64,000 nucleotides of DNA from a virus. Taxonomy: Duplodnaviria; Heunggongvirae; Uroviricota; Caudoviricetes. Location: IMG/VR virus record IMGVR_UViG_3300024298_000005; one strand, written 5' to 3'. The stretch's first letter is position 1. The number at the start of each line of letters is the position of its first letter. Of the stretch, positions 2,887 to 35,158 are shown one piece after another. The position numbers and the translations under genes were made by a program. The notes beneath the pieces were generated by a model. That model did not search any database, was not told the DNA's origin, and worked only from the letters and a program-made list of their open reading frames with translations.

Positions 2887-2931
2887 TATAGTCCACCGCA
2901 TAGCGGTATTATATAATTATGTACTAGAAAG

Positions 2932-2953
2932 AAAGGGCCCTTCGGGGCCCTTT
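2932..2953. terminator. bidirectional stem-loop terminator between convergent genes
   Basis: AAAGGGCCC-TTCG-GGGCCCTTT perfect 9-bp stem; T-rich flank on minus strand. Confidence 0.65.
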
Positions 2954-2955
2954 CA

Positions 2956-3660
2956 TTATGATCTAATTTTTGCTAAGTTTAATTTTTCAAGAATTTTAAT
3001 ATACAACCAACCTATATCAAACTCAAACCACTTGCGACTCAGTTTAGGGTTAGCGCCATCTCCGTGGTGGTTGTTATGTAATTCTTCACCGCCAATTAAA
3101 AATCCAATAGGAAAAATATTTCTGCTATTGTCCTTGACATCATAATTACGATACCCCCACCAATGTCCTATTCCGTTCACAACTCCTGCTGCAAAGAAAG
3201 GAATCCATATCATTTGAACTCCCCACACTACTACCCCAACAAGACCAAAAAGAACAAGGTCTATGACCAACATTAAAAGAATTCCTGCTAGGGGGTGGGG
3301 AGTATAAACATTGCGTTCAATCCAATCATCTGGAGTACCAATGCCAAGTTTATCGATCATATCTCTGTCTTTACTGGCTATTCCGTAATACCGTACTCCG
3401 TTGAACACTATATTTTTAATTCCAAAAATTAAAGGGCTATGAGGATCACCTTCTTTATCTGCATATTGATGATGTTTTCTATGTATTGCTACCCATTCTT
3501 TTGTGATCATTCCTGTAGTTAACCATAACCAAAAACGCATAAAGTGTTCAACCCAAGGATGAAATTGTACTGCTCGATGTGTTTGACCTCTATGCAAATA
3601 TAGAGTAACACAGGCAATGGTAATTTGTACCATTACCAGAGTATATATAAATTCTATCAT
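2956..3660 (-). CDS. membrane fatty-acid desaturase (delta-9 / DesC-like)
   Basis: His boxes HRxxxH, HRKHHxYxDKxGDPHSP and HNNHH; hydrophobic segments. Confidence 0.8.
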   Translation of the reverse strand: MIEFIYTLVMVQITIACVTLYLHRGQTHRAVQFHPWVEHFMRFWLWLTTGMITKEWVAIHRKHHQYADKEGDPHSPLIFGIKNIVFNGVRYYGIASKDRDMIDKLGIGTPDDWIERNVYTPHPLAGILLMLVIDLVLFGLVGVVVWGVQMIWIPFFAAGVVNGIGHWWGYRNYDVKDNSRNIFPIGFLIGGEELHNNHHGDGANPKLSRKWFEFDIGWLYIKILEKLNLAKIRS

Positions 3661-4241
3661 AAAAATTTCCCTATCCTGTCTAGGATAATGTTAACTACTT
3701 GATCACTAATAACAACTTCATAATGATTTAAAGGGACTTCAATTTGTTCAAAGTCTTGTCTGTAACGCATACTCTCTAGAGTAACTACCCCGTCATTGGG
3801 CTCATGTATCCAAGGACTCTGACCAACCGTGGTAACAACCTGAGTCCAATTTGGTGGGGCAGGTAAATCTCTAGCCACTATCATTGGTTTACTCATGGTG
3901 CCTACATCTTTCATTAGCCTATTAAAAGGCAGGAAGTAACGAGCAAAATCTGCTTCTTTACTTCCACCGTAGGGTGTGCTTAAACTTACACCGCCGTGTG
4001 TAGTTTCTTTATAATGATTAGCCAAATACAAAGAATAGATACCACCTAGACTATGGCTAATAAAGAACAATCGGTCAGCATCGTCGAGTTGACCTTTCAT
4101 TTGATTAAGGTTGTGCATAAACCCGTCATCACTCTTATATTCAAGCATGATGTCGGGTTCTTCAAATGTGTCTCTAACATATTGTCTAATGTGCGTAAAA
4201 CTTGCGGCAGTTGCACTTGCACCATGAATATATACTATCAT
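3657..4241 (-). CDS. alpha/beta hydrolase (lipase/esterase-like)
   Basis: nucleophile elbow SHSLGG (GxSxG); overlaps desaturase start (ATGA). Confidence 0.55.
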   Translation of the reverse strand: MIVYIHGASATAASFTHIRQYVRDTFEEPDIMLEYKSDDGFMHNLNQMKGQLDDADRLFFISHSLGGIYSLYLANHYKETTHGGVSLSTPYGGSKEADFARYFLPFNRLMKDVGTMSKPMIVARDLPAPPNWTQVVTTVGQSPWIHEPNDGVVTLESMRYRQDFEQIEVPLNHYEVVISDQVVNIILDRIGKFL

Positions 4242-4244
4242 ACA

Positions 4245-5519
4245 TTAATGAAATTGTTCTTCCTCTGTGCTACCAACTAGTGCTTGAGTAGAAGCATCTG
4301 CTTCGATGGTTGTAGTAACACGATCAAAATATCCTGTTCCTACTTCTCTTTGATGTTTTACTGCCTCAAACCCTAATGCCTGATTTGCAAATTCTTGCTC
4401 TTGCATTTTTACAAAAGCGGTCATTCCTTCTCGGGCATATCCATGTGCTAATTCAAACATACCGTTGTTTAAATTATGGAATCCGGCAAGAGTAATAAAT
4501 TGAAACTTATAACCCATCGCACCTAATTCGCGTTGAAACTTTGCAATGGTTGCATCGTCTAGGTTCTTCTTCCAGTTAAATGATGGCGAGCAGTTGTAGG
4601 CTAACATTTTACCTGGATGGTGTTTGTGTACTTCTTCTGCAAATCTTCTTGCGAAATCAAGATCAGGTTTCCCTGTTTCACACCATACAAGATCGGCGTA
4701 GGGTGCGTAGGCAACGGCTCTTGAGACTGCTTGTTCAAATCCGTTCTTTGTACGATAAAATCCTTCAACGGTTCTTTCGCCAGTAAGGAAAGGACGATCA
4801 TTATCATCAACATCACTAGTGATAAGATCGCCTGCTTCGGCATCAGTACGGGCAATAACCAAAGTAGGCACGCCCATGACATCAGCAGCAAGACGAGCAG
4901 CAACCAATTTGTTAATAGCTTCTCTTGTTGGTACAAGTACTTTTCCTCCCATATGTCCGCATTTTTTTACTGAGGCTAACTGATCTTCAAAATGTACACC
5001 GGCTGCACCGGCTTCGATCATAGCTTTCATTAATTCAAATGCATTTAACACTCCGCCAAACCCAGCTTCGGCATCGGCAATTATTGGAGCATAAAAATCT
5101 TGTTCTTTGCCTTCGCTCCAAGCAATCTGGTCTGCTCTTCGAAATGTATTATTAATCTTACGAACTACTGACGGGACCGAGTTAGCTGGATACAAACTTT
5201 GATCAGGGTACATTTCTCCTGCTAAATTAGCATCGCCTGCTACCTGCCATCCTGATAGATAAATTGCTTTTAATCCTGCTTTAACTTGTTGTAATGCTTG
5301 CATACCTGTTAAGGCACCAAGTGTATTAATATAATCTTCTGTGTGAAGAAGTTTAAATAATTTGTTTGCTTGTTCAACAGCGAACTGGCTCGGATGTATT
5401 TTGCTGCCTTGTAGGCGTACTACATCCTCTGCTGTGTAAGGTCGTTTAATACCGTTCCATCTTGGGTTTGTGGCCCAATCTTGTTGTAGTTCTTGCTGTC
5501 TCTGTGTACGTTGGTCCAT
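4245..5519 (-). CDS. aceA: isocitrate lyase
   Basis: signature KKCGHMGGK; 424 aa, colinear with bacterial ICL. Confidence 0.9.
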
Positions 5520-5566
5520 TTGGATCCTCCTTCTGTGATCCAGTATTTATGGCCCATTAAGACCTT

Positions 5567-6229
5567 TTAGGTATCTAACTGATCAACAAAATCTAACAGC
5601 AATTTATAGTGTTTTCCTTGATGATAATGCGGTTTCATCCAACTATAATGTTCTGTATACCAATTAAGTTGACTTTCAGGGTGGCAACCTATTAATCCTA
5701 TATTATTTTGAATAATAGCCATAGGATCTCCATTGGCGTATGTTGCTATTGTTTGAAATTTTTTATTATCACCGATCAATGCGCATCCATCATAGAAATA
5801 CATGCGTTCTTGTTGTCCTAACCAATTAATATTAATTGCTTTTGCATGTGGTCTACGGGTGTCGGTGTTTGGACGAGTGATATATTGAACAGCGTCAACA
5901 TTATCTAAAATATCAAAATAGTGTTTGCCTGCCCAATATGCTCCCATACATATTCCTAGATATTTTCCACCGTCTTGAATAAACTTTTTTATACGGGTCG
6001 TATGATTACGCATTAGATAATGCCAACTTTCGCTATCTCCAAAACCTCCTGGAATAGCAATCATATCAACATCATCAAAAAAGTTATCGTCAAGATCCCA
6101 TTTAGTGAATAATTTAAATTTATGATATGGTTGAAGTGCTTCGAGAATACCGTTCCCAGACTCTATTGAACATTTAGGTTGATGCACAAATAACGCTATC
6201 TTCATGCCACGGTCTTTATAAAAGCTCAC
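5567..6229 (-). CDS. class I glutamine amidotransferase-like protein
   Basis: IPGGFG ... GICMG nucleophile-elbow-like motif. Confidence 0.45.
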   Translation of the reverse strand: MSFYKDRGMKIALFVHQPKCSIESGNGILEALQPYHKFKLFTKWDLDDNFFDDVDMIAIPGGFGDSESWHYLMRNHTTRIKKFIQDGGKYLGICMGAYWAGKHYFDILDNVDAVQYITRPNTDTRRPHAKAININWLGQQERMYFYDGCALIGDNKKFQTIATYANGDPMAIIQNNIGLIGCHPESQLNWYTEHYSWMKPHYHQGKHYKLLLDFVDQLDT

Positions 6230-8328: not shown

Positions 8329-9138
8329 TTAATCGGCTTTTCCGCACTTGGCTCTTTTGGCGTTTGTTAATGCACCATAATCCACAGGCCATTCTTGTCC
8401 TGGTTGTAGCTCTCGAGCGTTAGCTGGAAATGCAAACTTTACTCCTGCAGCCTGTTCAATGCCGTTAATTGGGGTACGGAATTTAGTTAAATCATTGCCT
8501 AAATTAACATAGGGCTTTTTATGAGGGAACATCCAGCCAGCAACTGCTCCGGTTTGCTGATCAATTACAATCTTATAATATGCGTTTGGAACAATAACAC
8601 CGTTACCAATGTACCCATCACCAGCGCCATATAATGCCCCCACGTAGATCGTAAATGCGCGATTCTGCTGTACCGCCCACCCACGTACTGAAGTTTCCAG
8701 TAGTTTCCATATTCCACGGTTTAAACTTCCATGCTGTGGATACATGTTGGTCATGAGAAAACTCTCATACTCCACGATTTGGGACCAACTTAGGTCACCG
8801 TCGGGAGCAGCATGTCCTTTGTCGTAGCCTGTGCCTGCGTAGTCGCTCGGAGTAGGCCCATTTGGAATACTCTGGTCCGCAACGAATGCGTTCGTACGTG
8901 GAAAGCATCCTAAAGCATTTTGTGGTAGTAGTGTGTAGGCCACGTAAGCAGGAATTTTAACAGGAGCATCATATGCTACAAGATATGCTTCGCGGCAAAT
9001 TGGTTGTACTTGACGTTGTGTTTGTGCAAATCCATAAGGGCTGTGTACTTGACACGCCTGAACTGGCAATGGCGCTCTTTGTTCCCAGGCAAATGCTGTA
9101 GAAACAAACAGCGATAATAATAGTAGCAGTTTTTTCAT
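8329..9138 (-). CDS. secreted DNA/RNA non-specific endonuclease (Serratia NucA family)
   Basis: N-terminal signal peptide MKKLLLLLSLFVSTAFA; active-site motif YDKGHAAP (DRGH-type). Confidence 0.75.
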   Translation of the reverse strand: MKKLLLLLSLFVSTAFAWEQRAPLPVQACQVHSPYGFAQTQRQVQPICREAYLVAYDAPVKIPAYVAYTLLPQNALGCFPRTNAFVADQSIPNGPTPSDYAGTGYDKGHAAPDGDLSWSQIVEYESFLMTNMYPQHGSLNRGIWKLLETSVRGWAVQQNRAFTIYVGALYGAGDGYIGNGVIVPNAYYKIVIDQQTGAVAGWMFPHKKPYVNLGNDLTKFRTPINGIEQAAGVKFAFPANARELQPGQEWPVDYGALTNAKRAKCGKAD

Positions 9139-9961: not shown

Positions 9962-12900
9962 TTATAATATTCTCTCGCCAATGATGTTGTAGCCTGTTGT
10001 GCTACCGTTGTCACTACGCATGAATGTAATGCGATAGATACGACCTGCCGCCTTATCCTGTAGTGTAACGGTAACGGTATCACCAGCGGCATCCATACCG
10101 TGTAGATTATACAATGTAGTCCAGGCAGAAGTAGATACGATTGTGCCAGTGCTACCTGCTTGAGCAACGGCTGCACCATTGATAGCACCCACACCAGTCC
10201 AAGCAAGATTTCTTGACGAACCGTTGCCAATAACCTGTGGGAATATACCCCCTTGATTGCTGATGCGGAAACGCATATTATCCAAGGTAATCTCAGTATC
10301 TATGGCTGCGTTGTATGCCGTTCTTGATACTGACGGTGTTCTCGATGTAAAGGTTGCGTCAGTGTTAAATGTAACACCCGTGCTGCTCATTGTCAGCACA
10401 TTGGTATACGAACTGCTCGAACGGAACTGGAATGATCCTTGAGTTGATCCACCAATGCTAACGTCAAAGTACATATTGGTACTACCATTCTTCAAGTTAC
10501 GAAGAGCGCCTTCGTTAGGCATTTGTAGTGCAACGCCACTGACAGCATTATCTCCAGCAATGAACGCTGTGGTAGCATTAGCTGTTACACTACCGCTGTT
10601 GGCCACTAGATTCTTACCGATGTTTACACTTGATCCAGATCCGCTGTTATATTGAGTTCCAATACTAATATCACTACTATCTAAACTATTGATCCATAAT
10701 GTTCCACTGCTGGTATGAATATGAAGGTTGCCGTCGTCAAAAAGTTGTCCGTGTGTGCCAATATTGAGAGTCTTATTAGTAGCAGAGTTATTAGTTACAC
10801 TTGTTGTTCCTGGAATCGTTAAGACACCAGCACCCGATAAGGTAAGAAGTGTAACTGGGGCGTTGGAACCAGCAAAGCCTAATCCGTCGCCAGCATACCA
10901 ACCAAAGTTGAAGTTAGGGCCTTGAACAGAGGACCATAAGGTATCAGTTGACATACCGATAGCACAATCCATTTTATTCACTGCTATATCTGGATTGAAT
11001 AATATTCTGGTTCCTGTAGATCTATCAGTTACGGTAGGAGCCCCATAGACATTGTTAAAGTCTATTCTACTATAAGTAGAACCGTTAATATAAAGTTGTG
11101 CACCTGTTCCGTGTGTTGCGGTTCCCGTTTTACTACTAGTAATAGTTCCACTAGTTGTTAAACTTGTTAGTGTGCCAACACTGGTTAAACTTGAAGTTAC
11201 TACGGTTGAATTTAATGTTGTGCCGGTTAGTGTGCCCGCGGCCGCTGTAATAGTAGCACTTGCACCTAGTGCGATACTTGTGCCATTAATCGTTACTGAA
11301 CTATTTGCCAACTTAGAATTGGCAATAGATCCTGCCAGCATTGTGTTTGTGACCGTGCCGGTGTCGGTGGTATAAACACCATTGGTTACGGTATCGGCAT
11401 TGCCGGTATAAGCGGTGCTCTGTGTGGTATTATCTGGAAATGTTAAACTACCAGTAGTTCCAAATGTCCAATCTTTTAATGGGGATGTTCCGGTTTCAAT
11501 GATCAATCCAGACGGACTTCTAAACTTATTTGTATTGCTTAGTATTAAACTGCCGGAAGCATCAAATCCTAATACGCCAGTAAAACCACTTGCTGAAATA
11601 CTATTAACGGTAATAGTGCCGCTTCCACCTAAAGAAATGCTTGTGCCATTGACAGAGATACTGCTGTTTGCTAATGCGCTATTTGGAACGGAACTTAGTC
11701 GTGCATTAGGTAATGTTCCGCTGGTAATATTAGAAGCATTTGTTGTATCTGTGGTAGCACTCGTAGCTAACCCAGTAATCTTGCTTGTGGCAATACTGCC
11801 TGCTAACATAGCATTTGTAACCGTGCCGGTATCGCCTGTAGTAATCAGTGTGCCAGTTGTTCCTGGCATTGTAACGGTTGTTGTACCAGCTATTGCACTA
11901 GGCCTTAATTGTGTTGTGCCGCTAGTGCTACCAGCAAATGTAATCCATGCCATTCCGCCAAGTGTAGTTGACGAACTGCCTAATGATATTGATGTAGTAC
12001 CAATGGTAACAGAGCTATTAGACAAACTCGAGTTGGCAATGTTGGTAATAGTATTACTTGAGCCACTAATGTTTTTACTAGTTAAAGTTTCAGCACCTGT
12101 CTTAGTTGCATAACCTGTTAGTGTTGGGCCAGTGATGGTGATATTGCCTTCAGCATCACTGGATGTTGTAATATTATTAGCTCCTATAAACTTAATTGTT
12201 TCTTGACTACTAATAGTTTTTAATGAACTATCATCGGCTGCTACATTAAATGTAAATTGTGCCGGTATTGCTGCGGCGGTAATGTATCCGCTGTCGTTGG
12301 CTAATTGGCTTACATTTGTAGGTATAGTTGGCTTATTAGTTAAGTCTGTATAACTACCACTAAAGATTGTAGGGGTCCCAGTTAACTTGCTGTAGGCTAG
12401 ACTTGTTATCCACGCTGGATTTGCGTATGTGCCTGTGGTATAAACACCGTTGGTCACCGTATCGGCATTGCCGTCAATACTTACACCTGTTAGTGTTTGG
12501 CTAGCACTTGATCTGTTTAGGGCAATACTGGTTGTACCAACATAGGTAGTATCTGCTCTACGTGCTATAGTATTATCAACTGCTACGGTAACTGCTGTGC
12601 TACCATCATAACTTGTTCCGCTGAGTCCTGTGCCAATAGTTAGTGCATTAGGATTTACTGCGGTGATAGTAATAGCAGCAGAACCATCAAAATTTATTCC
12701 GTTGATAGCACGAGCAGTTCCTAATTTAGTTGCTGTTGCGGCATTACCCGAGCTAGTAATATATCCTTGGCTAGTAACATAAGTCTGTGTAGCATAGGTC
12801 AATAGCGTAGACGACAGCGAGCTATTAGTTACATAAGATGTTAGGTTAGGCGGTGTAAATGTAAACACCCCCGAAGTATTGTTGTAACTTAAACTTCCTC

Positions 12901-14116
12901 CACCGCTGGCTGAAGCATTCGATGCTGATAAGTCAGTGAGTCCAATACCACTACCACCACTGCCTACTAGGTCAGCTGCTGGTTGCCATATGCTAAGGCT
13001 GGCATTATATTTTAAGACTTGACCGTCTGTGGCTCCCACGGTAGTCACATCATCTAAACTATTTAAAGTTGTTAATATTGTAGGCTTGCTGGTAACATCG
13101 CTCCAACTAACAGACCCAGTCCAAGCTGTAGTCTGTGTTGTGTTGTCACTGAATGTTAGTTGTTTAGATAGTTTAACTTCTGTTTCACTAAAGCGAACAA
13201 CTTCCTTATTGCCTGCTGATGCATCACCTGCAATAATCTTAGTATAGGTATTGGCAATACTTGTGCCAAGTACTAAGTTACCACCGCCAGCATTACCTCC
13301 TTGCACATACAACCATCCATCACGCTGTCCTACATTATCATATAAACTATTCTCTGCTGTGCCGTCCCAACTTGCTCCGTTAATACCTAAATCAATATAG
13401 TAGTCTGTGTCGCTACCGTTTGGACTTGTTGCTACCCATTCTGTACTTGCGTGATTGCCATCGTTAGTATTTTGAAAGTTGTTCTGTGCGTAGTCGTTAA
13501 CCTGCGCTTGACTTTGGATAACGGTGTTAGGTAGTGCAGCTACACCTGCGGCGCGGCCTGCAAATATAGCAGTGAAACCTTCAGCATCACCTGGTAATAC
13601 TCCTGTGGCATGCAGTTTATTGTTAGTATCAAAGTCAATGGTATCTAGATCAAAGCTACTAGAAGTTACATATCCGCTATCGTTAGTAAAGGAACTAACT
13701 ACGCTAGGAATGCCTGCCGATGTAATGTATCCACGAGTAGTTACATAAGTTTGTGTAGCATAACTAGATAAGGCGCTTGAAGTAATGTATCCGCTATCGT
13801 TAGTAAATGCTGAGACTGCTGTGGGTGCATTTGAAATACTAGCATATGGAACGGTACCCACACTGATAACTTGATTAGCAATGTTAATAGTGGTGCCGTC
13901 AATTTTAACACCACCTTTTACGGTAGTTGTTGCTGTGGGTAATGTATAAGTTCCCCCGCCTGTTCCTCCGCTGACAACGGTTCCCCCTGGTGTTACTCCA
14001 TCGGAAATACGTAAAATACCCGTATCTTCGTCGTAAAATAGTTGTCCGTGAGCACCAACGTAAAATTCTACGTCTTGGCCAGGTATACGCCCAGATTTAA
14101 TCTTTTGAATAGTCAT
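9962..14116 (-). CDS. tail fibre protein (1384 aa, repeat-rich)
   Basis: Gly/Thr/Ser-rich; repeated FTNDSGY(I/V)TS and TYATQTYVT motifs; size typical of long tail fibres. Confidence 0.8.
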   Translation of the reverse strand: MTIQKIKSGRIPGQDVEFYVGAHGQLFYDEDTGILRISDGVTPGGTVVSGGTGGGTYTLPTATTTVKGGVKIDGTTINIANQVISVGTVPYASISNAPTAVSAFTNDSGYITSSALSSYATQTYVTTRGYITSAGIPSVVSSFTNDSGYVTSSSFDLDTIDFDTNNKLHATGVLPGDAEGFTAIFAGRAAGVAALPNTVIQSQAQVNDYAQNNFQNTNDGNHASTEWVATSPNGSDTDYYIDLGINGASWDGTAENSLYDNVGQRDGWLYVQGGNAGGGNLVLGTSIANTYTKIIAGDASAGNKEVVRFSETEVKLSKQLTFSDNTTQTTAWTGSVSWSDVTSKPTILTTLNSLDDVTTVGATDGQVLKYNASLSIWQPAADLVGSGGSGIGLTDLSASNASASGGGSLSYNNTSGVFTFTPPNLTSYVTNSSLSSTLLTYATQTYVTSQGYITSSGNAATATKLGTARAINGINFDGSAAITITAVNPNALTIGTGLSGTSYDGSTAVTVAVDNTIARRADTTYVGTTSIALNRSSASQTLTGVSIDGNADTVTNGVYTTGTYANPAWITSLAYSKLTGTPTIFSGSYTDLTNKPTIPTNVSQLANDSGYITAAAIPAQFTFNVAADDSSLKTISSQETIKFIGANNITTSSDAEGNITITGPTLTGYATKTGAETLTSKNISGSSNTITNIANSSLSNSSVTIGTTSISLGSSSTTLGGMAWITFAGSTSGTTQLRPSAIAGTTTVTMPGTTGTLITTGDTGTVTNAMLAGSIATSKITGLATSATTDTTNASNITSGTLPNARLSSVPNSALANSSISVNGTSISLGGSGTITVNSISASGFTGVLGFDASGSLILSNTNKFRSPSGLIIETGTSPLKDWTFGTTGSLTFPDNTTQSTAYTGNADTVTNGVYTTDTGTVTNTMLAGSIANSKLANSSVTINGTSIALGASATITAAAGTLTGTTLNSTVVTSSLTSVGTLTSLTTSGTITSSKTGTATHGTGAQLYINGSTYSRIDFNNVYGAPTVTDRSTGTRILFNPDIAVNKMDCAIGMSTDTLWSSVQGPNFNFGWYAGDGLGFAGSNAPVTLLTLSGAGVLTIPGTTSVTNNSATNKTLNIGTHGQLFDDGNLHIHTSSGTLWINSLDSSDISIGTQYNSGSGSSVNIGKNLVANSGSVTANATTAFIAGDNAVSGVALQMPNEGALRNLKNGSTNMYFDVSIGGSTQGSFQFRSSSSYTNVLTMSSTGVTFNTDATFTSRTPSVSRTAYNAAIDTEITLDNMRFRISNQGGIFPQVIGNGSSRNLAWTGVGAINGAAVAQAGSTGTIVSTSAWTTLYNLHGMDAAGDTVTVTLQDKAAGRIYRITFMRSDNGSTTGYNIIGERIL

Positions 14117-16598: not shown

Positions 16599-17801
16599 AT
16601 GATAAACAAAGAACCTTTTAAAAAACTATTGCAGGATCTTAAAGCATCAGGAAAATATCGTGTTTTTAATGATATTGTTAGAGAAGCTGGAAAATTTCCT
16701 ACAGCTATTTGGTACGGGCCTTATAACATTAAGAACATAGTAAACTGGTGTTCAAACGATTATTTGGGCATGGGCCAGCATAAAGTTGTGCTAGATGCTA
16801 TGCACACCGCTCTAGATCACACAGGATCTGGTTCAGGAGGCACTCGCAATATTGGCGGGTCTAGTCACTATCATAAAGCCTTAGAACACGAGCTTGCCAC
16901 TCTGCATAATAAACAGAGCAGTTTATTATTCAGCTCTGCATATGTGGCCAACGAATGGACTCTTATTGCTCTAAGCAAGATTGTGCCTAATATTCATTTT
17001 ATCAGCGATAGTAAAAATCACAATAGTTTAATTATAGGAATGAGTCATAGTCGAGCTCCTAAACAAATATTTGAACACAATAACCTAGAAGATTTAGAAA
17101 GCAAATTAGTTGCTGCTACACTTGCTGGCCATACTCCTTGTATTGTTTTTGAAAGTGTATATTCTATGGATGGTGATGTTGGAGACATAAGAGGAATTTG
17201 TAATCTAGCAGACAAATACAATGCTATCACTTACATTGACGAAGTACATGCGGTAGGGCTATACGGTGAGCGCGGCGCTGGTAAATTAGAAGAGTTAGGG
17301 TTCCAGGACCGAGTTGACATAGTTAACGGAACGCTTGGTAAAGCGTATGGTGTCCAAGGTGGATATATTGCTGCCGATGCAGATGTAATTGATGCTATCC
17401 GATCAGTGGCTGCAGGGTTCATTTTTACTACGTCTATGAGCCCTGTTACCTGTGCCGGTGCGTTGGCTGCAATCAAATACTTAAAAGAGCATAACGAAGT
17501 TCGAGAGAAACATCAAGAACGTGCTCGTAAATTAAGACATAGATTAAAGAAAGCAGGAATTCCTGTTATGGAATGTTCCACCACTCATATTATTCCTGTG
17601 CTTGTTGGAGATGCTAAGAAGTGTAAAGCAATGAGCGATATGCTGTTAAATGATCACAACATCTATGTTCAACCAATTAACTATCCTACGGTTGATGTAG
17701 GTACTGAAAGATTACGATTTGCACCCACTCCATATCACGACGACGGAATGATTGAAGATTTAGTCATTGCTCTTACTGCGGTGTTTAATAAATTTGATTA
17801 G
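16599..17801 (+). CDS. hemA: 5-aminolevulinate synthase (Shemin pathway, PLP-dependent)
   Basis: NYLGMGQHK ... [10 protein letters not shown] ... TLGKAYG PLP-lysine motif; colinear with ALAS. Confidence 0.85.
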
Positions 17802-18654
17802 TCTTTAAGTAATTAAAATATTCTTTAATACCTTGATCTATATTAAAGAATCCTTTAACATCAACACCAGCATCCTCTAAAAACTGGACTGATGCACAGG
17901 TGTATTCTTGATATTGTTCTTTAAGATCATTTGGCATGTCAATAGATATTTTTGTGCCATATCCAATCTCTTGTAAGCAAAGATCTGCAACTCGATCAAA
18001 ACTTACAGCATTACCAGTACCAAGGTCGTAGAGACCTTCTTTATAATTGTTAATAAAATGATGTACGGTTTTAGCCACATCTTCGACATATATAAAATCT
18101 CTTAGATAATTTTCTGAGTTGTTGAATATTTTTAAAATTAAATTGTTTTCTAATTGACGGTACCAATGAAAGGGCGTACTAGCCATACGACCTTTGTGAT
18201 ATTCATTTGGTCCGTAGACGTTGAATAATCGAAGTATTACACCATTAGTTATTTCTTGTTCGCAGGTAAGTTTACTAAAAGCATAGTGGTTAACAGGACC
18301 GTTTCCGTTGCCGTATACTGCTGCGCTTGACATGAATATAAACTTTTTTCCGTAATGCTTACAAAGGTCGTGCCATCTTCTTGTACTAACAATATTGGAT
18401 TCGTAGATGCTAGACCAATCTCTTTCTAGTGTACTTGCATTTGCTCCGCAATGGATAACACAATCGAACGCAGATAGATTGTCTATAATTTCTTTAGTAG
18501 AGTATAGTCCTTTATATTTTTTGCCAATTAAATTTTTATATTGATCTCCATAAGGCATATCATCAAAGAGGTAAACATCTTCGATTCCTTGTTTATTAAG
18601 ATAACCTAAAATATAACTTCCAATAAAGCCTGCTGCTCCTGTGAGTATAATCAT
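17785..18654 (-). CDS. hldD: ADP-L-glycero-D-manno-heptose 6-epimerase
   Basis: [13 protein letters not shown] Rossmann start, ...SSAAVYG; close to E. coli HldD over N-terminal 120 aa; start set at internal Met giving ATGA overlap. Confidence 0.75.
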
Positions 18655-19427
18655 AGTATTTCCTCTAATGTTGGTGCATAACATCCAACGTGCTGTACCG
18701 TAATTGATGATGCATTGTTGGCAAACTCTAATGCTTGCATCATATTTTCTGTTTCTAAAAATTTGTAGGTCAATGCAGCTAAGAAAGTATCGCCTGCTCC
18801 TGTTACATCAACCAATGGAACTTTTTTAGGGGTTAGTTTATTATCCAAATATTGAACCCCATCTTCGCCAAGAGTAACAATTAACCATTTGCTGTTTGGT
18901 AATGTAATAGCCTTGCTTTTTTCTAATTCATTTATTTTTACATAACAGCCTTCGAACCTAACAAGGTCTGTTTTTTTAGTGTCAATGAAAATAGGTCCTT
19001 TGTATTCTTTTCTAATTTCTTCAACAAGTTCGTAGGTAATGGTTCCTTTGTTATAATCGCTGATTACTATTGCATCATAAAAATTAGGAATAGGAGTATC
19101 AAACCTAATAGGATCACTTTTCTTATCTCTATCAATTCGAACTATCTGTTGTTTACTGCGTCGATCGATAAGTCTTTCTTTTTCGCTAGTTTCCCCGTAG
19201 AGGAAATTTACATTGCACCCAAGTGCTTCTAAATTTTCTCTAACGTTGTCGGCCATACCCGCTTTGTAAGTATGTCCATGTGGATTGAACACAGGTATTG
19301 GAGCTTCAGGACTAATCCTATTCACACTTCCGTATGTGTAAATGTCTGTACCTTTATCCCCTATCAATAATATCCTGTATTGTTTTGGAAGTTGAGTGAT
19401 TTGTTCGTTCATAAAATAATATTTCAT
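18651..19427 (-). CDS. PfkB-family sugar kinase (HldE kinase-domain-like, heptose-7-P kinase candidate)
   Basis: PfkB signature DVTGAGDTFLAAL; GGGAGA RBS before Met at 19427. Confidence 0.65.
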   Translation of the reverse strand: MKYYFMNEQITQLPKQYRILLIGDKGTDIYTYGSVNRISPEAPIPVFNPHGHTYKAGMADNVRENLEALGCNVNFLYGETSEKERLIDRRSKQQIVRIDRDKKSDPIRFDTPIPNFYDAIVISDYNKGTITYELVEEIRKEYKGPIFIDTKKTDLVRFEGCYVKINELEKSKAITLPNSKWLIVTLGEDGVQYLDNKLTPKKVPLVDVTGAGDTFLAALTYKFLETENMMQALEFANNASSITVQHVGCYAPTLEEIL

Positions 19428-19752
19428 TGCAGTATTCTTCTCCCACAATCGATCTATTGCGGTAGTCACTGCCTTTTACCATAGTTACAGGCCTAATGCT
19501 TTTAATTATTGAGATAAGTTCTTCTTCAGTATTGAAAATCTTAACATCATCTACAGATTTTAAATTCTGTAACATAAGCATACGATCCCATTGATCGTTA
19601 ATAGGGCGGCCCGGCCCTTTAAGAAAATTTACACGAGCATCGCTGTCAATACAAACTAGCAAACGATCGCCAACAGACTTTGCATAGTTTAATAATTCTA
19701 TGTGTCCTCTATGCAATATATCAAAAGTTCCATTGACTATTATTTGTTTCAT
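19354..19752 (-). CDS. cytidylyltransferase-like nucleotidyltransferase (HldE domain-II-like, heptose-1-P adenylyltransferase candidate)
   Basis: GTFDILHRGH (H/T-x-G-H) motif. Confidence 0.7.
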   Translation of the reverse strand: MKQIIVNGTFDILHRGHIELLNYAKSVGDRLLVCIDSDARVNFLKGPGRPINDQWDRMLMLQNLKSVDDVKIFNTEEELISIIKSIRPVTMVKGSDYRNRSIVGEEYCNEILFYERTNHSTSKTIQDIIDRG

Positions 19753-20372
19753 GGTAACGAGTTAACAAAACTTGCAAGATCGTCAAATATAATAGTTCGA
19801 CGCTTTAATTCTCTGTAAGTGAATTTGTTTAATTCTTTTTCTGTTTCAAGGCCATAACCTGTTCTAACTAACACAGGTTTTGAACCCATCTTAACTGCTG
19901 CTTTAAGATCTTTAATCTTATCGCCTACATAATAACCTTGATTAAATTTAATATCTGGAATTTCTTTTTCACATCTCTTAAACATTCCAGTATTTGGTTT
20001 TGCAAACGGATCATCTTTACGTGAGCTAGCAGAATAATATATTGCATCGATACTAGAACATCCTGCCTTGCCAAACAAATCTAGCATATGTGTGTGCAAT
20101 GTATCTACTTGTTCTTGTGTATAGATACCCTTTTCAATTCCCCCTTGATCTGTAATGATTACAATCTTATAACCTTTACGTCTAAGTTCAGCAACTGCAT
20201 CAACGCTGCCAGGAATTGGATCAAAATCTTCAACACGATAACAATAGGTACCTAGATCGCGATTAATAACTCCGTCACGATCTAAGCCTATTACACACTT
20301 TGTTCTAAACTCGCCACCAGTCCAGGTAATCTTAGGCTGGTTGTTCTGTGGCTGGTTGTTCTGTTGTTGCAC
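19749..20372 (-). CDS. gmhB: D,D-heptose 1,7-bisphosphate phosphatase (HAD-IIIA)
   Basis: GLDRDGVIN motif and HAD fold spacing. Confidence 0.7.
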   Translation of the reverse strand: MQQQNNQPQNNQPKITWTGGEFRTKCVIGLDRDGVINRDLGTYCYRVEDFDPIPGSVDAVAELRRKGYKIVIITDQGGIEKGIYTQEQVDTLHTHMLDLFGKAGCSSIDAIYYSASSRKDDPFAKPNTGMFKRCEKEIPDIKFNQGYYVGDKIKDLKAAVKMGSKPVLVRTGYGLETEKELNKFTYRELKRRTIIFDDLASFVNSLP

Positions 20373-20733
20373 TTTGGCTGTCTCCGGGAATGATTCGATA
20401 GTTATCCTCTACACTATCTGCTGTACTAACTTCAAATATCATTGAGTTTGGTACAAGAGCAATAAGTTGATGAGGCATCATAGGAGGGTTATGCCAAGTA
20501 TCACCTTCATTTAAGAATTTTTCGTGATAGGTTGCTGTTTTTGTGTCGCACCAAACCAATTTAAATTTTCCTGCGTTTACAAACCATGTTTCGTCTTTTT
20601 CTTTATGAAAGTGCATACTAAACTTAGCACCTGCTTTTTCAAAGACCATAATCTTACCGCAGTACTTGTCGTTGGTTGCCCAAATAATTTCGCAACCCCA
20701 TCCTTTATCTACTTTACCTTCTTGTCTTGTCAT
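20332..20733 (-). CDS. cupin-fold protein (sugar isomerase/epimerase-like)
   Basis: small beta-barrel-type sequence with His-rich motifs; within sugar-nucleotide cluster. Confidence 0.4.
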   Translation of the reverse strand: MTRQEGKVDKGWGCEIIWATNDKYCGKIMVFEKAGAKFSMHFHKEKDETWFVNAGKFKLVWCDTKTATYHEKFLNEGDTWHNPPMMPHQLIALVPNSMIFEVSTADSVEDNYRIIPGDSQSATTEQPATEQPA

Positions 20734-21320
20734 TATCGTTTCTCGATGATTTTGTCAACGAGTCCATATTCAAGAGCTTCTTGCGCTGACATAAACTTAT
20801 CACGTTCCATGTCGCGAGCAAACTCTTCGTAGGTCTTACCTTTTGAATTATGCTTAACATAAATCTCAGTAAGATTCTTTTTCATTTTTAAAATCTCTTC
20901 TGCTTGAATTTGAATATCTGTAGCTTGACCACGGGCGCCGCCGCTGGGTTGATGAATCATGTGACGAGCGTTTGGCAACATATAACGTTTACCTTCTGCT
21001 CCTGCTTGTGCTAACAAACTTCCCATTGAACAAGCCTGTCCCATAACGTAGGTAGCCACAGGGCATTTAATAAACTGCATTGTGTCATAAATGCTCATGC
21101 CTGCTGTAACAACACCACCTGGGCTATTAATAAACAGACTAATTTCTTTATCTGGATTTTCGCTTTCTAAAAATAATAGTTGTGCAACTACAATATTTGC
21201 CATGTGGTCTTCAACTTCACCTGTTAACATGACAATACGCTCTTTAAGTAATCTGCTATAGATATCGTATGCACGTTCGCCTTTTGATGTAGACTCAACT
21301 ACCATTGGTACTAAACTCAT
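20733..21320 (-). CDS. clpP: ATP-dependent Clp protease proteolytic subunit
   Basis: Ser (GQACSMGS), His (HQPSGG), Asp triad spacing; 195 aa. Confidence 0.85.
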
Positions 21321-22256
21321 TTATGCTTCCTTAATGTTAGAAATATTTTTTAGTTTAAGCTCTTCCATTAGGTCCGTCAACCATCGTAATACCTTTACAT
21401 TTGGTTTATAACCCAGTTCGGCTAATCTTGTAATATCTGCTTCTGTATTTGCTACTGCTCCAACACGTGGCGGAACAACTATTTGTCTATGACTAATAAT
21501 GTCTGCCAATTGTTTGATACTTACAGATTGGCCTGATCCTAAATTGAATACGTCTCCGTGTTCACCGTACTCTAGAACAATCATAAGACCTTTGATAACA
21601 TCACTAACATGAACAAAGTCTCTGCGTTGATCACCACCGCCGTGTAACAACAACGGTTGATTGGTTTCCCAGGCAGAAATAAACTTTGGAATCACTAATG
21701 CGTTTTTGCCAAAGTCCATAAAGTCTCCGTACATGGTAAAAGGTCTTATTATTATTAATTCTGTATCCCCAACAAGACTCTGCACGTGAAGTGCCCATTC
21801 TGCAGACATCTTGCTCACAGCATAAGGATTGGTTGGCATCAATTGGCTATCTTCTCGTTGTTTGATTGTACCGTTGTTTCCATACACTGAGCTAGAACTT
21901 ATATAAACAAATTTCCTTACACCCATAGTTTGGCATAAACTAAAAAATTTATGTGTTGCTGTTATGTTTACATTATAGTATTCAGCGTACTCATTCCAAC
22001 TAGGATCAATCCTAGATCGATTGGCCATATGAACAACAACATCAACTTCTTTAAGATGTTCTTTTAAAACTGGAATATCTTCTGTTATATCGCAATAATG
22101 TATTTGATTATTGTGCGACCACCCTTCTCGAACACTTTGGTCCCATAAGAACGGAGGTTTATCAATCAATACCGTTTCGTCAAACATTTGTTTTAAGAAT
22201 GGGGTAGCATTGCGTCCAAGAAACCCATTTGCTCCAGTGATCATTAATTTGCTCAT
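21321..22256 (-). CDS. NAD-dependent sugar epimerase/dehydratase (SDR family)
   Basis: ITGANGFLG Rossmann motif, YAVSK catalytic YxxxK. Confidence 0.75.
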   Translation of the reverse strand: MSKLMITGANGFLGRNATPFLKQMFDETVLIDKPPFLWDQSVREGWSHNNQIHYCDITEDIPVLKEHLKEVDVVVHMANRSRIDPSWNEYAEYYNVNITATHKFFSLCQTMGVRKFVYISSSSVYGNNGTIKQREDSQLMPTNPYAVSKMSAEWALHVQSLVGDTELIIIRPFTMYGDFMDFGKNALVIPKFISAWETNQPLLLHGGGDQRRDFVHVSDVIKGLMIVLEYGEHGDVFNLGSGQSVSIKQLADIISHRQIVVPPRVGAVANTEADITRLAELGYKPNVKVLRWLTDLMEELKLKNISNIKEA

Positions 22257-22331: not shown

Positions 22332-22871
22332 TTGTTAACCAAAAGTAAAAAAATGAGTACCCTACTATTAAATGCAGACATGCAACCAATTAGCCTACTT
22401 CCGCTATCTTGTGTAGATTGGCAGGAAGCCATTCGCTATATGGTTTTGGACAAGGCCGAAGTCCTTGAGTGGTATGACGACTGGATTGTTCATTCAGCTC
22501 GTTGGGAAACTAAAGTTCCTGCTGTACTAATGCTCAAGGAATATCAAAAGCCTAAGAACACAATGCGCTTATCTAAGCGTAATGTATTCTTGCGAGACCA
22601 ATATACTTGCCAATACTGCGGTACAGAAGTAACAGATCAAACTGCTACTTTGGACCATGTACATCCTGTGTCAAAAGGAGGTAAGACCACTTGGGAAAAC
22701 TCTACAACTGCATGTAAGCCTTGCAACTATAAAAAGGCTGCTCATGTAGGTAAGATGAAACCAAAATTGTCTCCATACAAACCCCACTTTTGGGATCTAG
22801 TTGAAAAGAGAAAACTAAAAGGTTTTCACTTACATCATCCAAGCTGGGCATCTTATTTGGGTGTTGAATGA
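22332..22871 (+). CDS. HNH endonuclease
   Basis: CxxC ... LDHVHPVSKGG ... N ... CxxCN HNH motif. Confidence 0.7.
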   Translation: MLTKSKKMSTLLLNADMQPISLLPLSCVDWQEAIRYMVLDKAEVLEWYDDWIVHSARWETKVPAVLMLKEYQKPKNTMRLSKRNVFLRDQYTCQYCGTEVTDQTATLDHVHPVSKGGKTTWENSTTACKPCNYKKAAHVGKMKPKLSPYKPHFWDLVEKRKLKGFHLHHPSWASYLGVE

Positions 22872-23458
22872 CTCCGATCAGTCTATCTCCAGCGGTTGTA
22901 TGGAAAGGCCATTATTCTGGTGACCTAAGTGAGTTGGTTAAACGAGCTTCTCATAAACTCAAAACTGGATCACAACTTAATAACAGAGTAGAACGGGACG
23001 GAGGGATAAGTTCTTCCTCCGATCCCGATGCGCCTCACTACTGGGAAGAATCAAACGATTTTCTTGTTTGGGCGGGACCAATGATAGAAAAAGTTTGGGC
23101 TGAATGGCAACTTCCAAAATGTGACTTATCAATAAGCTCTAGTTGGGTTAACCTTCATCCTTTTAACGGATGGACTGACGAACACACTCACGGTAGTGTT
23201 CCGTTGGTCTGCGTTTTATATGTTGAACAACCTGCCAACGGTGGAAACTTAGAAATTTTTGATCCAATGTTTCATATTTGGAGCGGAAGTCTTAGAGTTG
23301 AGCTTCCTTGGAAAGAAGTTGAAGTCCAAACGGGAGATGTATTAATGTTCCCAGGTTGGATGCTACATAAAACTCAAAAAAACAACTCAAACGATGATCG
23401 GATCGTTATGAGTATAAACATTAGCCCAAATCCTCACACATTCCATAGAACATTTTAG
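22868..23458 (+). CDS. 2OG-Fe(II) oxygenase superfamily protein (TIGR02466-like)
   Basis: C-terminal LMFPGWMLHK motif shared with paralogs at 29352, 33094, 55829. Confidence 0.6.
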   Translation: MTPISLSPAVVWKGHYSGDLSELVKRASHKLKTGSQLNNRVERDGGISSSSDPDAPHYWEESNDFLVWAGPMIEKVWAEWQLPKCDLSISSSWVNLHPFNGWTDEHTHGSVPLVCVLYVEQPANGGNLEIFDPMFHIWSGSLRVELPWKEVEVQTGDVLMFPGWMLHKTQKNNSNDDRIVMSINISPNPHTFHRTF

Positions 23459-26887: not shown

Positions 26888-27682
26888 ATGAAGCGTATTG
26901 CAACTCTTTCTATCCTTGCCGCGGCTATTTTGGCCACTGGCTGTACTCGTATTGAAACTGGTGAAGTTGGTCTGCGGGTCGGCTTTGACAAACAAGTTAA
27001 GAATGATGAGCTCTTGCCTGGCAGTTTTAATCAAACCATTATTGGAGATGTTCTTACATTCCCGGTTAAGGATGTTAACGTCAAACTGGATGACATGACT
27101 CCTATTGCCAAAGATAACAGCACAATGAAAGACTTTGATGCTATTGTTATCTATAGTTTGAACCAAGCACAGGTAGCAGAACTTTACAATACAAAAAGCA
27201 AAGCATTTCACGTTAAACATGACGGTGATACTTATCTAATGTTTAATTACATTTACAATGCTGCTCGTAATGCTATCTACAAAGAAGCACGTAAGTATGA
27301 AGCATTGGACATGGCGGACAATCGTCAGCAAATGGAAACTGCTATTAAAGAACAAATCCAAAAAACTCTTGTAGAAGAAAAATTGGATGGTTCAATTACT
27401 ATTACACAAGTTCTTGTTCGTAATGTTGTGCCAGCAGACTCCGTTGTAGAATCAGCCAATGCTCTTGTTCGTGCAAAGAATGAGTTCAAACAAAAAGAAG
27501 TTGAAGTGGCTACTGCTAAGAAAGAAGCAGAGCGTATGCAAGCTCTGAGCAATCAAGGCGCCCAATCAATTGCTTACATGAACGCACAGGCCGCACTTAA
27601 TATCTCAGAAGGTATTAAGAACGGTAAGGTACAGACAATTGTTGTTCCTAGCAACATGACTGGTTTGATGATTAACAAGTAA
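26888..27682 (+). CDS. SPFH/band-7 (HflK/C-, prohibitin-like) lipoprotein
   Basis: signal peptide with lipobox LATGC; SPFH-like core; C-terminal coiled-coil. Confidence 0.6.
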   Translation: MKRIATLSILAAAILATGCTRIETGEVGLRVGFDKQVKNDELLPGSFNQTIIGDVLTFPVKDVNVKLDDMTPIAKDNSTMKDFDAIVIYSLNQAQVAELYNTKSKAFHVKHDGDTYLMFNYIYNAARNAIYKEARKYEALDMADNRQQMETAIKEQIQKTLVEEKLDGSITITQVLVRNVVPADSVVESANALVRAKNEFKQKEVEVATAKKEAERMQALSNQGAQSIAYMNAQAALNISEGIKNGKVQTIVVPSNMTGLMINK

Positions 27683-28989: not shown

Positions 28990-29359
28990 ACTAAGTTGGA
29001 GTGTACTAGATCCAAAACCGGTTCTATTGTATATTAGAAATTCTGACGAATATATATGTTATTGGAACGGCATTGCTATGACACATACTATGGCTATGAA
29101 TATGGCTTTAGAACCGTTTGGTATCTTTGCTACTCCAGAAATGAAAACATCTATGGAACAGGACTATCGAAGAATCTATTATGCAGGAGGTTTCGATACT
29201 CGTGCTTGGGATTTTAAAGTTTCAGAAAGCCCAATATATCCATATGTAAAACGTTTAATGGCTGAACATATTAAAAAGACCATTGCTGAACAAAAACGTC
29301 CTATTGCAGAAGTATTAGGATGGTTTGATTATAGTAGGGCTCGAACAGATAATGATTGA
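28979..29359 (+). CDS. hypothetical protein
   Basis: GGAGA RBS before internal Met. Confidence 0.4.
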   Translation: MRSELSWSVLDPKPVLLYIRNSDEYICYWNGIAMTHTMAMNMALEPFGIFATPEMKTSMEQDYRRIYYAGGFDTRAWDFKVSESPIYPYVKRLMAEHIKKTIAEQKRPIAEVLGWFDYSRARTDND

Positions 29360-30874: not shown

Positions 30875-31413
30875 TTACTCTAAAGCAATTTATGGAAACT
30901 TGTAACTATCGTATTACTGAAGGTAGTGAATACGGTTGGCAATGTTTTGGGCGTGATGCTTATCGCTTAGATTCTTGGAATGGCGATATTGAAGGACACA
31001 CAATTACCATTGTGTTTGATACCAAAACACAGGTTGTCTATGAAGTAGAAGCATTTGACTATAAACGTGAACGTGCTTATCGTATGATCAATCTTGCGTT
31101 CAAACCTGCCTTTGATGCAGAAGTTGAGGATCGAGAAATCCTTGATATGGCTTGGGAAAAAGATGACGGTACACCCGTTAAGTATGTTGACATTGATGTA
31201 GATGAAGACTTTCTTGAAAAGGCCTATGCTATCTGCAACGATCAAGAATATGATACTCGTGTACAGGTTCAAGTAGAGTTCTCAGACGAAGAACTTTTAA
31301 ATTACATGAAGATTGCTCACGAACGCGATATTACTTTTAATCAACTTGTAGAACAAGCATTAAAGGCTGCAATCGATCTTAATGCTTCTATTAAGAATCT
31401 TAGATTAGACTAA
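30871..31413 (+). CDS. hypothetical protein
   Basis: 180-aa ORF. Confidence 0.5.
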   Translation: MITLKQFMETCNYRITEGSEYGWQCFGRDAYRLDSWNGDIEGHTITIVFDTKTQVVYEVEAFDYKRERAYRMINLAFKPAFDAEVEDREILDMAWEKDDGTPVKYVDIDVDEDFLEKAYAICNDQEYDTRVQVQVEFSDEELLNYMKIAHERDITFNQLVEQALKAAIDLNASIKNLRLD

Positions 31414-34283: not shown

Positions 34284-34303
34284 GCAGTATTTACTGCTGG
34301 GGC

Positions 34304-35146: not shown

Positions 35147-35158
35147 ACTAGTATTTAA

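Follow-up and report, generated by a model that had tools for sequence, protein, structure and literature searches.

Why would a phage carry an isocitrate lyase (ICL) side by side with a fatty-acid desaturase and a lipase-like hydrolase, and might such a set of genes reroute the carbon of its host? The question is raised by IMG/VR virus record IMGVR_UViG_3300024298_000005 (Caudoviricetes), of which a stretch of 64,000 nucleotides, here called the window, was analysed. Three of its genes are at issue:

4245-5519, minus strand: isocitrate lyase of the AceA type, 424 amino acids (open reading frame and profile matches)
3657-4241, minus strand: small soluble alpha/beta hydrolase (lipase/PGAP1-like serine esterase), 194 amino acids
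2956-3660, minus strand: DesA-family membrane fatty-acid desaturase, core only, 234 amino acids

The original prediction had described a complete phage-encoded ICL with the motif KKCGHMGGK, together with a co-directional membrane desaturase and a co-directional alpha/beta hydrolase with the motif SHSLGG, and these three identifications held. We consider it probable that the genes form a phage-controlled ICL operon that would open the glyoxylate branch point, leave the downstream steps to host enzymes, and add lipid-modifying enzymes to them.

The ICL, which contains KKCGHMGGK, matched the Pfam family ICL (PF00463) with an E value of 6e-106 and passed the NCBIfam AceA equivalog PRK15063 (778.5 bits, cut-off 562) as well as TIGR01346 (619.2 bits, cut-off 275.9). 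Its 14 best matches among solved structures (596-732 bits) were all isocitrate lyases. The best was 3I4E (732 bits), which we take to be the Burkholderia pseudomallei enzyme; Escherichia coli AceA (1IGW) scored 634 and Mycobacterium tuberculosis ICL1 629 bits. In the alignment to M. tuberculosis ICL1, the catalytic loop K185 K186 C187 G188 H189 falls on K189-H193, and the Mg2+ ligands (D106, D149, E151, and E178) and the substrate ligands (Y87, S89, G90, W91, H176, R224, E281, N309, S311, S313, and T343) are all kept, the list of active-site residues being that of the ICL1 structure papers. The protein also falls in the length class of bacterial AceA (about 425-440 amino acids) and shares its KKCGH loop. 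Judged by its sequence, it is a genuine, complete AceA-type enzyme with all catalytic residues, and it is predicted to cleave isocitrate to succinate and glyoxylate.

Might the protein instead be a methylisocitrate lyase, another enzyme of the phosphoenolpyruvate (PEP) mutase superfamily, or an inactive relic? The original prediction had raised these doubts itself, and there are weak matches to Pfam PEP_mutase (59 bits) and to the models of prpB, the methylisocitrate lyase. Methylisocitrate is also cleaved, as a side activity, by some ICLs, M. tuberculosis ICL1 among them. However, the two prpB models gave only 102.5 and 78.6 bits (cut-offs 354 and 353) and the carboxyPEP mutase model 40.8 bits (cut-off 420), against 778.5 bits for AceA. 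With solved relatives that are all ICLs, every catalytic residue mapping onto ICL1, and a ratio of nonsynonymous to synonymous substitution (dN/dS) of about 0.05, we regard this alternative as very improbable.

By the evidence of its surroundings, the ICL region is phage-borne, with phage genes flanking it on either side. Among the proteins of the window are a virion structural protein (phrog_1645) that is closest to that of cyanophage S-RIM32 (53%), a DNA ligase, and a DnaB helicase that is closest to those of Pseudomonas and Agrobacterium jumbo phages such as PA5oct and Atu_ph07 (49-53%). It also encodes a primase-like Toprim protein, an HNH endonuclease, ClpP, and many small open reading frames (ORFs). 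Many metagenome contigs from different samples, the longest of 130 kb, carry an identical ICL with the same neighbours, and close relatives sit inside contigs of 281-365 kb with genes for phage DNA polymerase B, Phage_DsbA, ClpP, and radical-SAM proteins. The ICL matched no family in PHROGs, and none of 50,697 phage records was matched when the 2.5-kb region was searched by megablast. That the region is bacterial DNA, through contamination or a chimeric assembly, might be suspected from its close bacterial homologues (about 77% identity for the ICL and 54-59% for the desaturase, among the matches listed) and from the other high-coverage ICL matches in the phage database, which are Salmonella/E. 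coli AceA-like, two of them on 501-kb Salmonella records. We find this hardly credible, given that independent contigs from different samples have the same gene order, that phage genes flank it on both sides, that relatives lie in the 281-365 kb phage contigs, that the ICL lineage excludes the sampled bacteria, and that the neighbourhood was found at none of 80 bacterial loci.

The original prediction had proposed a phylogeny of the ICL, and a neighbour-joining tree of 163 ICLs placed the window sequence in a virus-only group. The bacterial sample was a biased one, consisting of genomes sharing exact 8-residue peptides with the query, among the matches listed. The group comprises 60 viral ICLs including that of the window, and it lies beside 80 bacterial ICLs, mostly from Burkholderiales and some from Xanthomonadales (among the matches listed). 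Exactly this viral group was recovered in 126 of 200 bootstraps, and no sampled bacterial ICL fell inside it in 194 of 200. The phage ICLs thus appear to be a lineage of their own; the description "sister to Burkholderiales" is limited by the sampling, and the donor lineage is not settled. Among the matches listed, the closest bacterial homologues are about 77% identical, while a peptide-pattern scan of IMG/VR found relatives at 58-90% identity on 113 contigs. The deposited genome of Phage C48C1 contains an unannotated ICL that is 58% identical to that of the window. Against its phage relatives, the window ICL has a proportion of nonsynonymous differences (pN) of about 0.09 and a proportion of synonymous differences (pS) of 0.65-0.79. 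Since the synonymous sites are saturated while pN is low, the pattern of substitution indicates that the gene has long been resident in phages and is strongly constrained by purifying selection. A recent transfer was also considered as the cause of the 85-90% ICL identity across very different phages, and it was rejected because the synonymous sites are saturated.

If the phage makes its own ICL, does it also make the malate synthase of the shunt? The original prediction had suggested looking for one elsewhere in the genome. This was done for the 64-kb window, part of a genome of at least 130 kb, and for the ICL loci of the lineage. No match below an E value of 0.1 was found in the window by tblastn with E. 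coli AceB and GlcB, no window ORF of at least 400 amino acids had a malate synthase domain, and tblastn gave no match in any of the 59 loci of the window ICL lineage. In a distant viral group, aceB lies directly upstream of the ICL (L153, L155, L158, L160, L162, and L163; 64-66% identity), and malate synthase matches also occurred in about 25 bacterial ICL loci. As far as these sequences go, the glyoxylate shunt is incomplete on the phage side. The window ICL also differs from bacterial AceA in having no aceB, aceK, or usual bacterial neighbours adjoining it, as well as in being phage-encoded, in lying behind a phage-type upstream motif, and in belonging to a virus-only lineage.

The original prediction called a glyoxylate-shunt enzyme in a phage unusual, and this did not hold. 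Reports of viral aceA and aceB date from 2013, in viromes of the Pacific Ocean (PMC4053976); a complete T4-like marine genome of 179 kb with an aceBA operon followed in 2017 (PMC5332604), and a 2025 preprint counted 98 ICL genes in huge phages (10.1101/2025.02.27.640493); to these are added the 113 IMG/VR contigs with relatives. The window ICL resembles the reported viral ICLs in being of the AceA type, from a large tailed phage, and from aquatic metagenomes. Unlike those of the reported aceBA phages, it has no aceB partner and shares its operon with a desaturase and an esterase. In the preprint, huge phages that encode malate synthase came only from marine, soil, and plant-related habitats and not from freshwater (10.1101/2025.02.27.640493). 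The absence of malate synthase at the window locus agrees with this pattern, and the sample environment of the window phage is likely to be freshwater. No biochemically characterised phage ICL was found in the literature, and thus the reported phage ICLs remain annotations. An ICL is therefore already known as an auxiliary gene of phages, and the window locus is a well-documented new example of it.

Are the three genes expressed together? The signals around them, and the gene upstream, are as follows:

5544-5551, minus strand: T4-type late-promoter-like motif CATAAATA, 24 nt upstream of the ICL start codon
5526-5530, minus strand: Shine-Dalgarno sequence GGAGG, 6 nt before the ICL ATG
2931-2954, minus strand: intrinsic terminator GAAAGGGCCC-CGAA-GGGCCCTTTC followed by TTTCT (terminator scan)
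5567-6229, minus strand: class I glutamine-amidotransferase-like (GATase-like) or BPL_N-like protein, 220 amino acids (Pfam BPL_N 42 bits, GATase 32 bits)

Between the ICL stop and the hydrolase start there are only 3 nt, and the hydrolase stop and the desaturase start share 4 nt (ATGA). The terminator, a strong one, which has a 10-bp stem with 7 G-C pairs, begins 1 nt past the desaturase stop codon and lies between convergent genes. The anatomy of ICL, hydrolase, and desaturase is, by these sequence signals, that of one transcription unit. In related phages, the GATase-like gene stands directly before the ICL, or before the desaturase where the ICL is absent. It is a syntenic anchor of a variable region, and its membership in the operon is uncertain; a search by sequence found no relative with a solved structure for its product.

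The T4-type late promoter is TATAAATA, and the motif NATAAATA resembles it; a promoter function is predicted for NATAAATA from this likeness. The motif is depleted in the window (9 observed against about 25 expected), and 8 of the 9 copies precede a start codon by no more than 40 nt. The copies include:

706, minus strand: NATAAATA
5551, minus strand: NATAAATA
8328, minus strand: NATAAATA
9175, minus strand: NATAAATA
14129, minus strand: NATAAATA
35437, plus strand: NATAAATA
53497, plus strand: NATAAATA

Within 120 nt upstream of the ICL, NATAAATA was found in 35 of 91 viral loci as against 1 of 77 bacterial loci, and in the close relatives it mostly keeps the same register ahead of the Shine-Dalgarno sequence, the arrangement of which is likewise kept. 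A scan of the window for sigma-70 promoters showed no enrichment (18 found, 24 expected). Rfam found two tRNAs only in the window and no riboswitch near the ICL.

What would the two lipid-related enzymes do? Three histidine boxes were found in the desaturase, HRGQTH at residues 23-28 (HX4H), HRKHH at 60-64 (HX2HH), and HNNHH at 195-199 (HX2HH), and they are invariant across the phage and bacterial homologues. The protein matched Pfam FA_desaturase (E 2e-13) and the NCBIfam family DesA_fam_desat (NF049918), in the latter case with 404.2 bits, barely over the cut-off of 400 because only model positions 11-240 of 385 are covered. Over its whole length it shares 54-59% identity with about 250 N-terminal residues of desaturases from Variovorax, Ralstonia, Burkholderia, and Legionella (394 amino acids in Variovorax and 392 in Legionella), and many residues besides the histidine boxes are invariant in this proteobacterial DesA family. 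The phage proteins differ from the family in ending at about residue 234. All phage copies examined stop exactly where the C-terminal helical extension of the bacterial proteins starts. In bacterial examples (L169, 2947-4131; L170, 2959-4137), this extension is about 145 amino acids long and helical, and contains no histidine boxes. By Kyte-Doolittle analysis the phage protein has two hydrophobic segments, residues 1-23 and 118-161, the second long enough for a hairpin. Its dN/dS against phage relatives is about 0.09. DesA of Pseudomonas aeruginosa is a characterised delta-9 phospholipid desaturase, and delta-9 regiospecificity of the window protein is predicted from family membership alone.

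The desaturase occurs on at least 569 IMG/VR contigs and is far commoner than the ICL. It matched only an unnamed family in PHROGs, and tblastn against the 50,697 phage records gave no match at an E value of 1e-5. Cyanophages encode delta-9 lipid desaturases (vFAD) that were proposed to adjust the membrane fluidity of the host (PMC5776448). These are likewise phage-encoded membrane fatty-acid desaturases with histidine boxes, but the window protein belongs to the proteobacterial DesA family and is not close kin. Since tblastn found no match among the phage records, the cyanophage enzymes serve as an analogy only.

The hydrolase has SHSLGG at residues 62-67 and by itself stays below the Pfam thresholds (Abhydrolase_6 18.6 bits, cut-off 26.3; Hydrolase_4 16.9 bits, cut-off 27). 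Among 55 distant relatives, however, 51 matched Abhydrolase_6 and 41 matched PGAP1 at an E value of 0.01 or better. Its family has 647 homologues in a 90%-clustered collection and 568 clusters at 50% identity; nearly all of them have about 190-200 amino acids. Across the 55 relatives, which share 28-46% identity, H6, G7, H63, S64, G66, P90, G93, N149, D150, and H173 are invariant. The putative catalytic triad is S64-D150-H173, with H6-G7 as the putative oxyanion motif. The family profile matched a putative lipase (7x2p, E 6e-11) and the triacylglycerol lipases 1hqd and 1ys1 (E 2e-9), presumably Burkholderia enzymes; further matches were lipases of Proteus and Pseudomonas, Bacillus subtilis LipA, palmitoyl thioesterase, and LCAT/LPLA2. 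The single sequence is only marginally similar to lipases (E about 0.02), and the similarity is significant only via the family profile. An AlphaFold2 model (mean predicted local distance difference test score 78.7, predicted template modelling score 0.81) has an alpha/beta hydrolase fold with no lid. Foldseek returned 542 PDB matches at an E value of 1e-3 or better, the top 50 of which were all alpha/beta hydrolases, with family I.1 lipases the best.

The phage protein shares with family I lipases, LipA, and PGAP1/LCAT-like deacylases the fold, the HG oxyanion motif, the H-S-x-G-G elbow, the order of the Asp and His residues, and a TPxGGS motif after the next strand. It is as small and lidless as the minimal lipase LipA of B. 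subtilis (181 amino acids). Unlike those enzymes, it forms a compact family of its own and has no signal peptide. As neither a signal peptide nor a hydrophobic or membrane segment was found, it would work in the cytoplasm rather than as a secreted lipase. The term lipase-like esterase is justified at the level of the superfamily, going by profiles and model, and the matches to lipases, PGAP1, LCAT, and palmitoyl thioesterases suggest a lipid ester as the substrate. The hydrolase matched no family in PHROGs. Its relatives in cultured phages are from the Ralstonia phages RP13 (40%) and RsoM2USA and from a Vibrio jumbo phage, and its dN/dS is 0.16, from one unsaturated pair only.

Is the combination of ICL and desaturase peculiar to this phage? 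The desaturase is present in 35 of the 59 loci of the window ICL lineage. Of the 38 viral loci that are informative (those with at least 3 kb on both sides of the ICL), 27 have it within 6 kb of the ICL, the median gap being about 630 nt; none of 80 bacterial loci does. In four loci the desaturase is directly upstream of the ICL instead. Moreover, a second viral ICL type, 402 amino acids long, about 61% identical to the window ICL, and with KKCGH intact, was found in the same setting:

L251-L257, L274-L275, L285, L287-L289, L293, and L303 (e.g. L254, 5372-6580): second ICL type, before an esterase or aldolase-like gene and the desaturase

In seven of these loci it is followed by an esterase (83% identical) and a desaturase (64% identical). 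Among the sampled ICLs, that of Phage C48C1 comes closest to this second type. The sequences suggest a variable accessory region anchored on the desaturase, into which an ICL was brought and then retained on at least two occasions, the ICL types being different. The comparison shows, at the level of gene order, that the linkage is non-random, and a shared pathway is not thereby proved.

The commonest gene in the middle position is that of a class II aldolase/adducin-family protein (PF00596) of about 210 amino acids (e.g. L085, 9508-10161; L165, 11370-12017). It is absent from the window and fits no equivalog, its best models being those of MtnB and rhamnulose-1-phosphate aldolase, with scores far below cut-off. 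In two loci (L108, 6325-7509; L112, 9435-10652), a D-amino-acid dehydrogenase-like FAD oxidoreductase is encoded between the ICL and the aldolase-like gene. It scored 438 bits against PRK12409 (cut-off 494) and is also similar to the glycine oxidase ThiO; enzymes of these kinds can interconvert glycine and glyoxylate.

How might the unit work in an infected cell? In the reading that we favour, the late-promoter-like motif, the Shine-Dalgarno sequence, the three genes, and the terminator would make up one unit whose products are made late. The phage-made ICL would force isocitrate into succinate and glyoxylate, whatever the regulation of aceA in the host. Since malate synthase was found neither in the window nor in the ICL loci of the lineage, host enzymes, either malate synthase or a glyoxylate aminotransferase, would have to take up the glyoxylate. 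The net effect would be that two-carbon units and the carbon of the tricarboxylic acid (TCA) cycle are kept as four-carbon compounds and glycine-type precursors rather than lost as CO2. The rerouting of acetate or fatty-acid carbon that the original prediction proposed is plausible on these sequence grounds. Meanwhile, the desaturase core would put double bonds into membrane acyl chains with an electron donor of the host, and the soluble cytoplasmic esterase would cleave an acyl ester, probably of a lipid. The three genes would then share their timing and a lipid-to-two-carbon-to-four-carbon theme with only loose coupling, the desaturase being the widespread anchor gene and the ICL and esterase accessory genes inserted beside it.

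Several points weigh against this reading. The desaturase is without the C-terminal extension of about 145 amino acids that its bacterial relatives have, and the activity of the core is predicted from its sequence. Malate synthase in the host is an assumption. The promoter call comes from the motif by itself, and in some cases the NATAAATA copy and the start codon are just 4-5 nt apart, a spacing that would point to leaderless transcripts. The fold matches of the hydrolase are generic, with esterases, KAI2 proteins, and dehalogenases scoring similarly, and its D150 loop falls in a low-confidence part of the model (residues 93-114 and 142-152 are of low confidence). The middle gene is interchangeable, being the class II aldolase-like gene in 23 loci, the esterase in 6, and neither in 4, with both present in L099. 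Most of the 79 desaturase contigs examined have no ICL nearby, and the linkage of ICL and desaturase may reflect an insertion hot spot rather than a joint function.

The last points lead to an alternative that we take seriously as quite possible, namely that the genes have no functional coupling and are independent host-derived cargo in a hypervariable region beside a widespread desaturase. The desaturase is mostly without an ICL on the 569 or more viral contigs that carry it, and on some contigs, including those of sibling phages without an ICL, the GATase-like gene comes directly before it. The gap that holds the middle gene can also hold the D-amino-acid-dehydrogenase-like gene, a DUF6445 gene, or a KDO8P-synthase-like ORF, and the esterase is found away from the ICL as well, and in the Ralstonia phages RP13 and RsoM2USA. 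Independent cargo sits less well with the fact that an ICL, where there is one, almost always adjoins the desaturase, also in loci with the reversed order (L136, L140-142) or the other ICL type, and with a pairing that holds across phages whose flanking genes differ. The genes are also packed, with stop and start codons that overlap or abut, within one promoter-to-terminator unit.

Could the ICL serve redox balance rather than carbon conservation? By skipping two NADH-producing decarboxylations, it might lower the electron load, reactive oxygen species, or the iron demand late in infection; the membrane would meanwhile be adjusted by the desaturase, which depends on O2 and iron. Several bacteria induce the glyoxylate shunt when iron is limiting and under oxidative stress, and genes for ClpP, an SPFH/Band 7 protein, a Bax1-I protein, and many 2-oxoglutarate-Fe(II) (2OG-Fe(II)) oxygenases in the window fit a broad manipulation of host physiology. 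However, we found no sequence feature specific to redox control, and no result separates relief of redox stress from conservation of carbon; we consider this role rather improbable.

A further question is whether the diverted carbon has a destination encoded by the phage. About 11 kb from the ICL, the window encodes another metabolic enzyme:

16599-17801, plus strand: 5-aminolevulinate synthase (AlaS), 400 amino acids (TIGR01821, 571.6 bits, cut-off 338.55)

AlaS condenses glycine and succinyl-CoA, and the ICL would yield glyoxylate and succinate in a 1:1 ratio, each one step away from these substrates. The ICL might therefore feed the Shemin pathway of the phage, with precursors for tetrapyrrole or, more generally, for glycine. 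SAR11-type bacteria make glycine from ICL-derived glyoxylate. Moreover, the AlaS of the same phage passes TIGR01821, and viral AlaS from aquatic phages of this kind has been shown to be active (PMC11480375). Those phages were placed near pelagimyophages, with alpha- or gammaproteobacterial hosts (PMC11480375). The window shares with them the AlaS, and its neighbourhood is syntenic with many AlaS-bearing IMG/VR contigs; on the other hand, neither the paper nor its supplements mention an ICL, the paper does not report the cassette, and the words isocitrate, desaturase, lipase, and hydrolase are absent from the supplements (PMC11480375). Thirteen of 80 AlaS-anchored IMG/VR loci carry an ICL within 10 kb, in a conserved block of desaturase, aldolase-like gene or esterase, ICL, GATase-like gene, p375, p289, and AlaS in which both ICL types occur.

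Against such a supply, AlaS is more widespread than the ICL, and 59 of the 80 AlaS loci have no cassette gene within 10 kb. The phages of 281-365 kb that have the ICL, the aldolase-like gene, and the desaturase have no AlaS within 10 kb of them. No glyoxylate aminotransferase or succinyl-CoA synthetase turned up in the domain scans of the window, and the proximity of ICL and AlaS may reflect a shared region of accessory genes. Among the window ORFs scanned against Pfam, no match to a heme oxygenase or bilin reductase family was found. On balance we think it unlikely that the ICL feeds AlaS. Going further, the ICL might be the entry of a phage-organised supply line from isocitrate to the AlaS substrates, with glyoxylate converted to glycine and succinate to succinyl-CoA, so that tetrapyrrole and glycine precursors would be drawn from the TCA cycle. 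The cassette of ICL, esterase or aldolase-like gene, and desaturase would then be a module that can be transferred and that myovirus-like and jumbo phages have in common. We regard this extended scheme as doubtful, and the phage-controlled branch point with host enzymes downstream remains our preferred reading.

Other genes of the window were also annotated. There are seven 2OG-Fe(II) oxygenase paralogues, including:

22868-23458: 2OG-Fe(II) oxygenase
29325-29948: 2OG-Fe(II) oxygenase
33094-33753: 2OG-Fe(II) oxygenase
33672-34283: 2OG-Fe(II) oxygenase
55829-56392: 2OG-Fe(II) oxygenase
59804-60424: 2OG-Fe(II) oxygenase

Most of these belong to PF13759. The SPFH/Band 7 protein (26888-27682, plus strand), the Bax1-I family membrane protein (55152-55832, plus strand, 177 bits), and an AlgH/YqgE-like protein (31405-31962, minus strand) are genes of a host-physiology type. 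A 144-amino-acid ORF (53723-54157, minus strand) matched the C-terminal domain of malonyl-CoA decarboxylase (PF05292, 31.3 bits, cut-off 23.2; PDB 4ksa, E 1e-3). It is much shorter than the bacterial enzymes of about 450 amino acids and, if active, would convert malonyl-CoA to acetyl-CoA.

Adjoining AlaS, a sugar-nucleotide cluster (17785-22256, minus strand) encodes an ADP-heptose 6-epimerase-like protein, a heptose-7-phosphate kinase-domain protein, a GmhB-like phosphatase, and a second NAD-dependent epimerase/dehydratase, all below equivalog cut-offs, with ClpP embedded in it (20733-21320). A DNA/RNA non-specific endonuclease (8329-9138, minus strand; PF01223, 129 bits) begins with the hydrophobic leader MKKLLLLLSLFVSTAFA, and this N-terminal leader suggests that the nuclease may be exported. 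A 1384-amino-acid protein (9962-14116, minus strand) has no Pfam domain, and only short segments of it, of about 70-90 amino acids, are 41-59% like cyanophage tail-fibre proteins. Its gene is absent between the nuclease and AlaS in related AlaS loci and thus looks like an insertion. From 34000 to 52000, the G+C content is 0.46-0.49, compared with about 0.37 elsewhere, and small ORFs on the plus strand fill the stretch. The two tRNAs, tRNA-Arg(TCT) and tRNA-Met(CAT), lie in it at 37439-37597, as do genes for a MoxR/AAA_5 ATPase (42790-43875) and its partner, a DUF2201 metallopeptidase/VWA protein (44033-45241).

What, then, does the locus add to the known phage ICLs? No description of the ICL-desaturase linkage was found in the literature searched, and neither the second ICL type nor the AlaS neighbourhood is described in any paper found. 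The locus is a clean test case, with an intact enzyme, a defined unit with a phage-type motif, and no malate synthase partner. There are dozens of natural variants of it: some have the esterase and others lack it, some have an aldolase-like gene in its place, and some have the second ICL type. The links to the desaturase and to AlaS provide testable ideas on the use of the diverted carbon. If the ICL is active, these phages could turn on a TCA-cycle branch point without regard to how the host regulates it, and the share of carbon that infected aquatic bacteria respire rather than keep would change.

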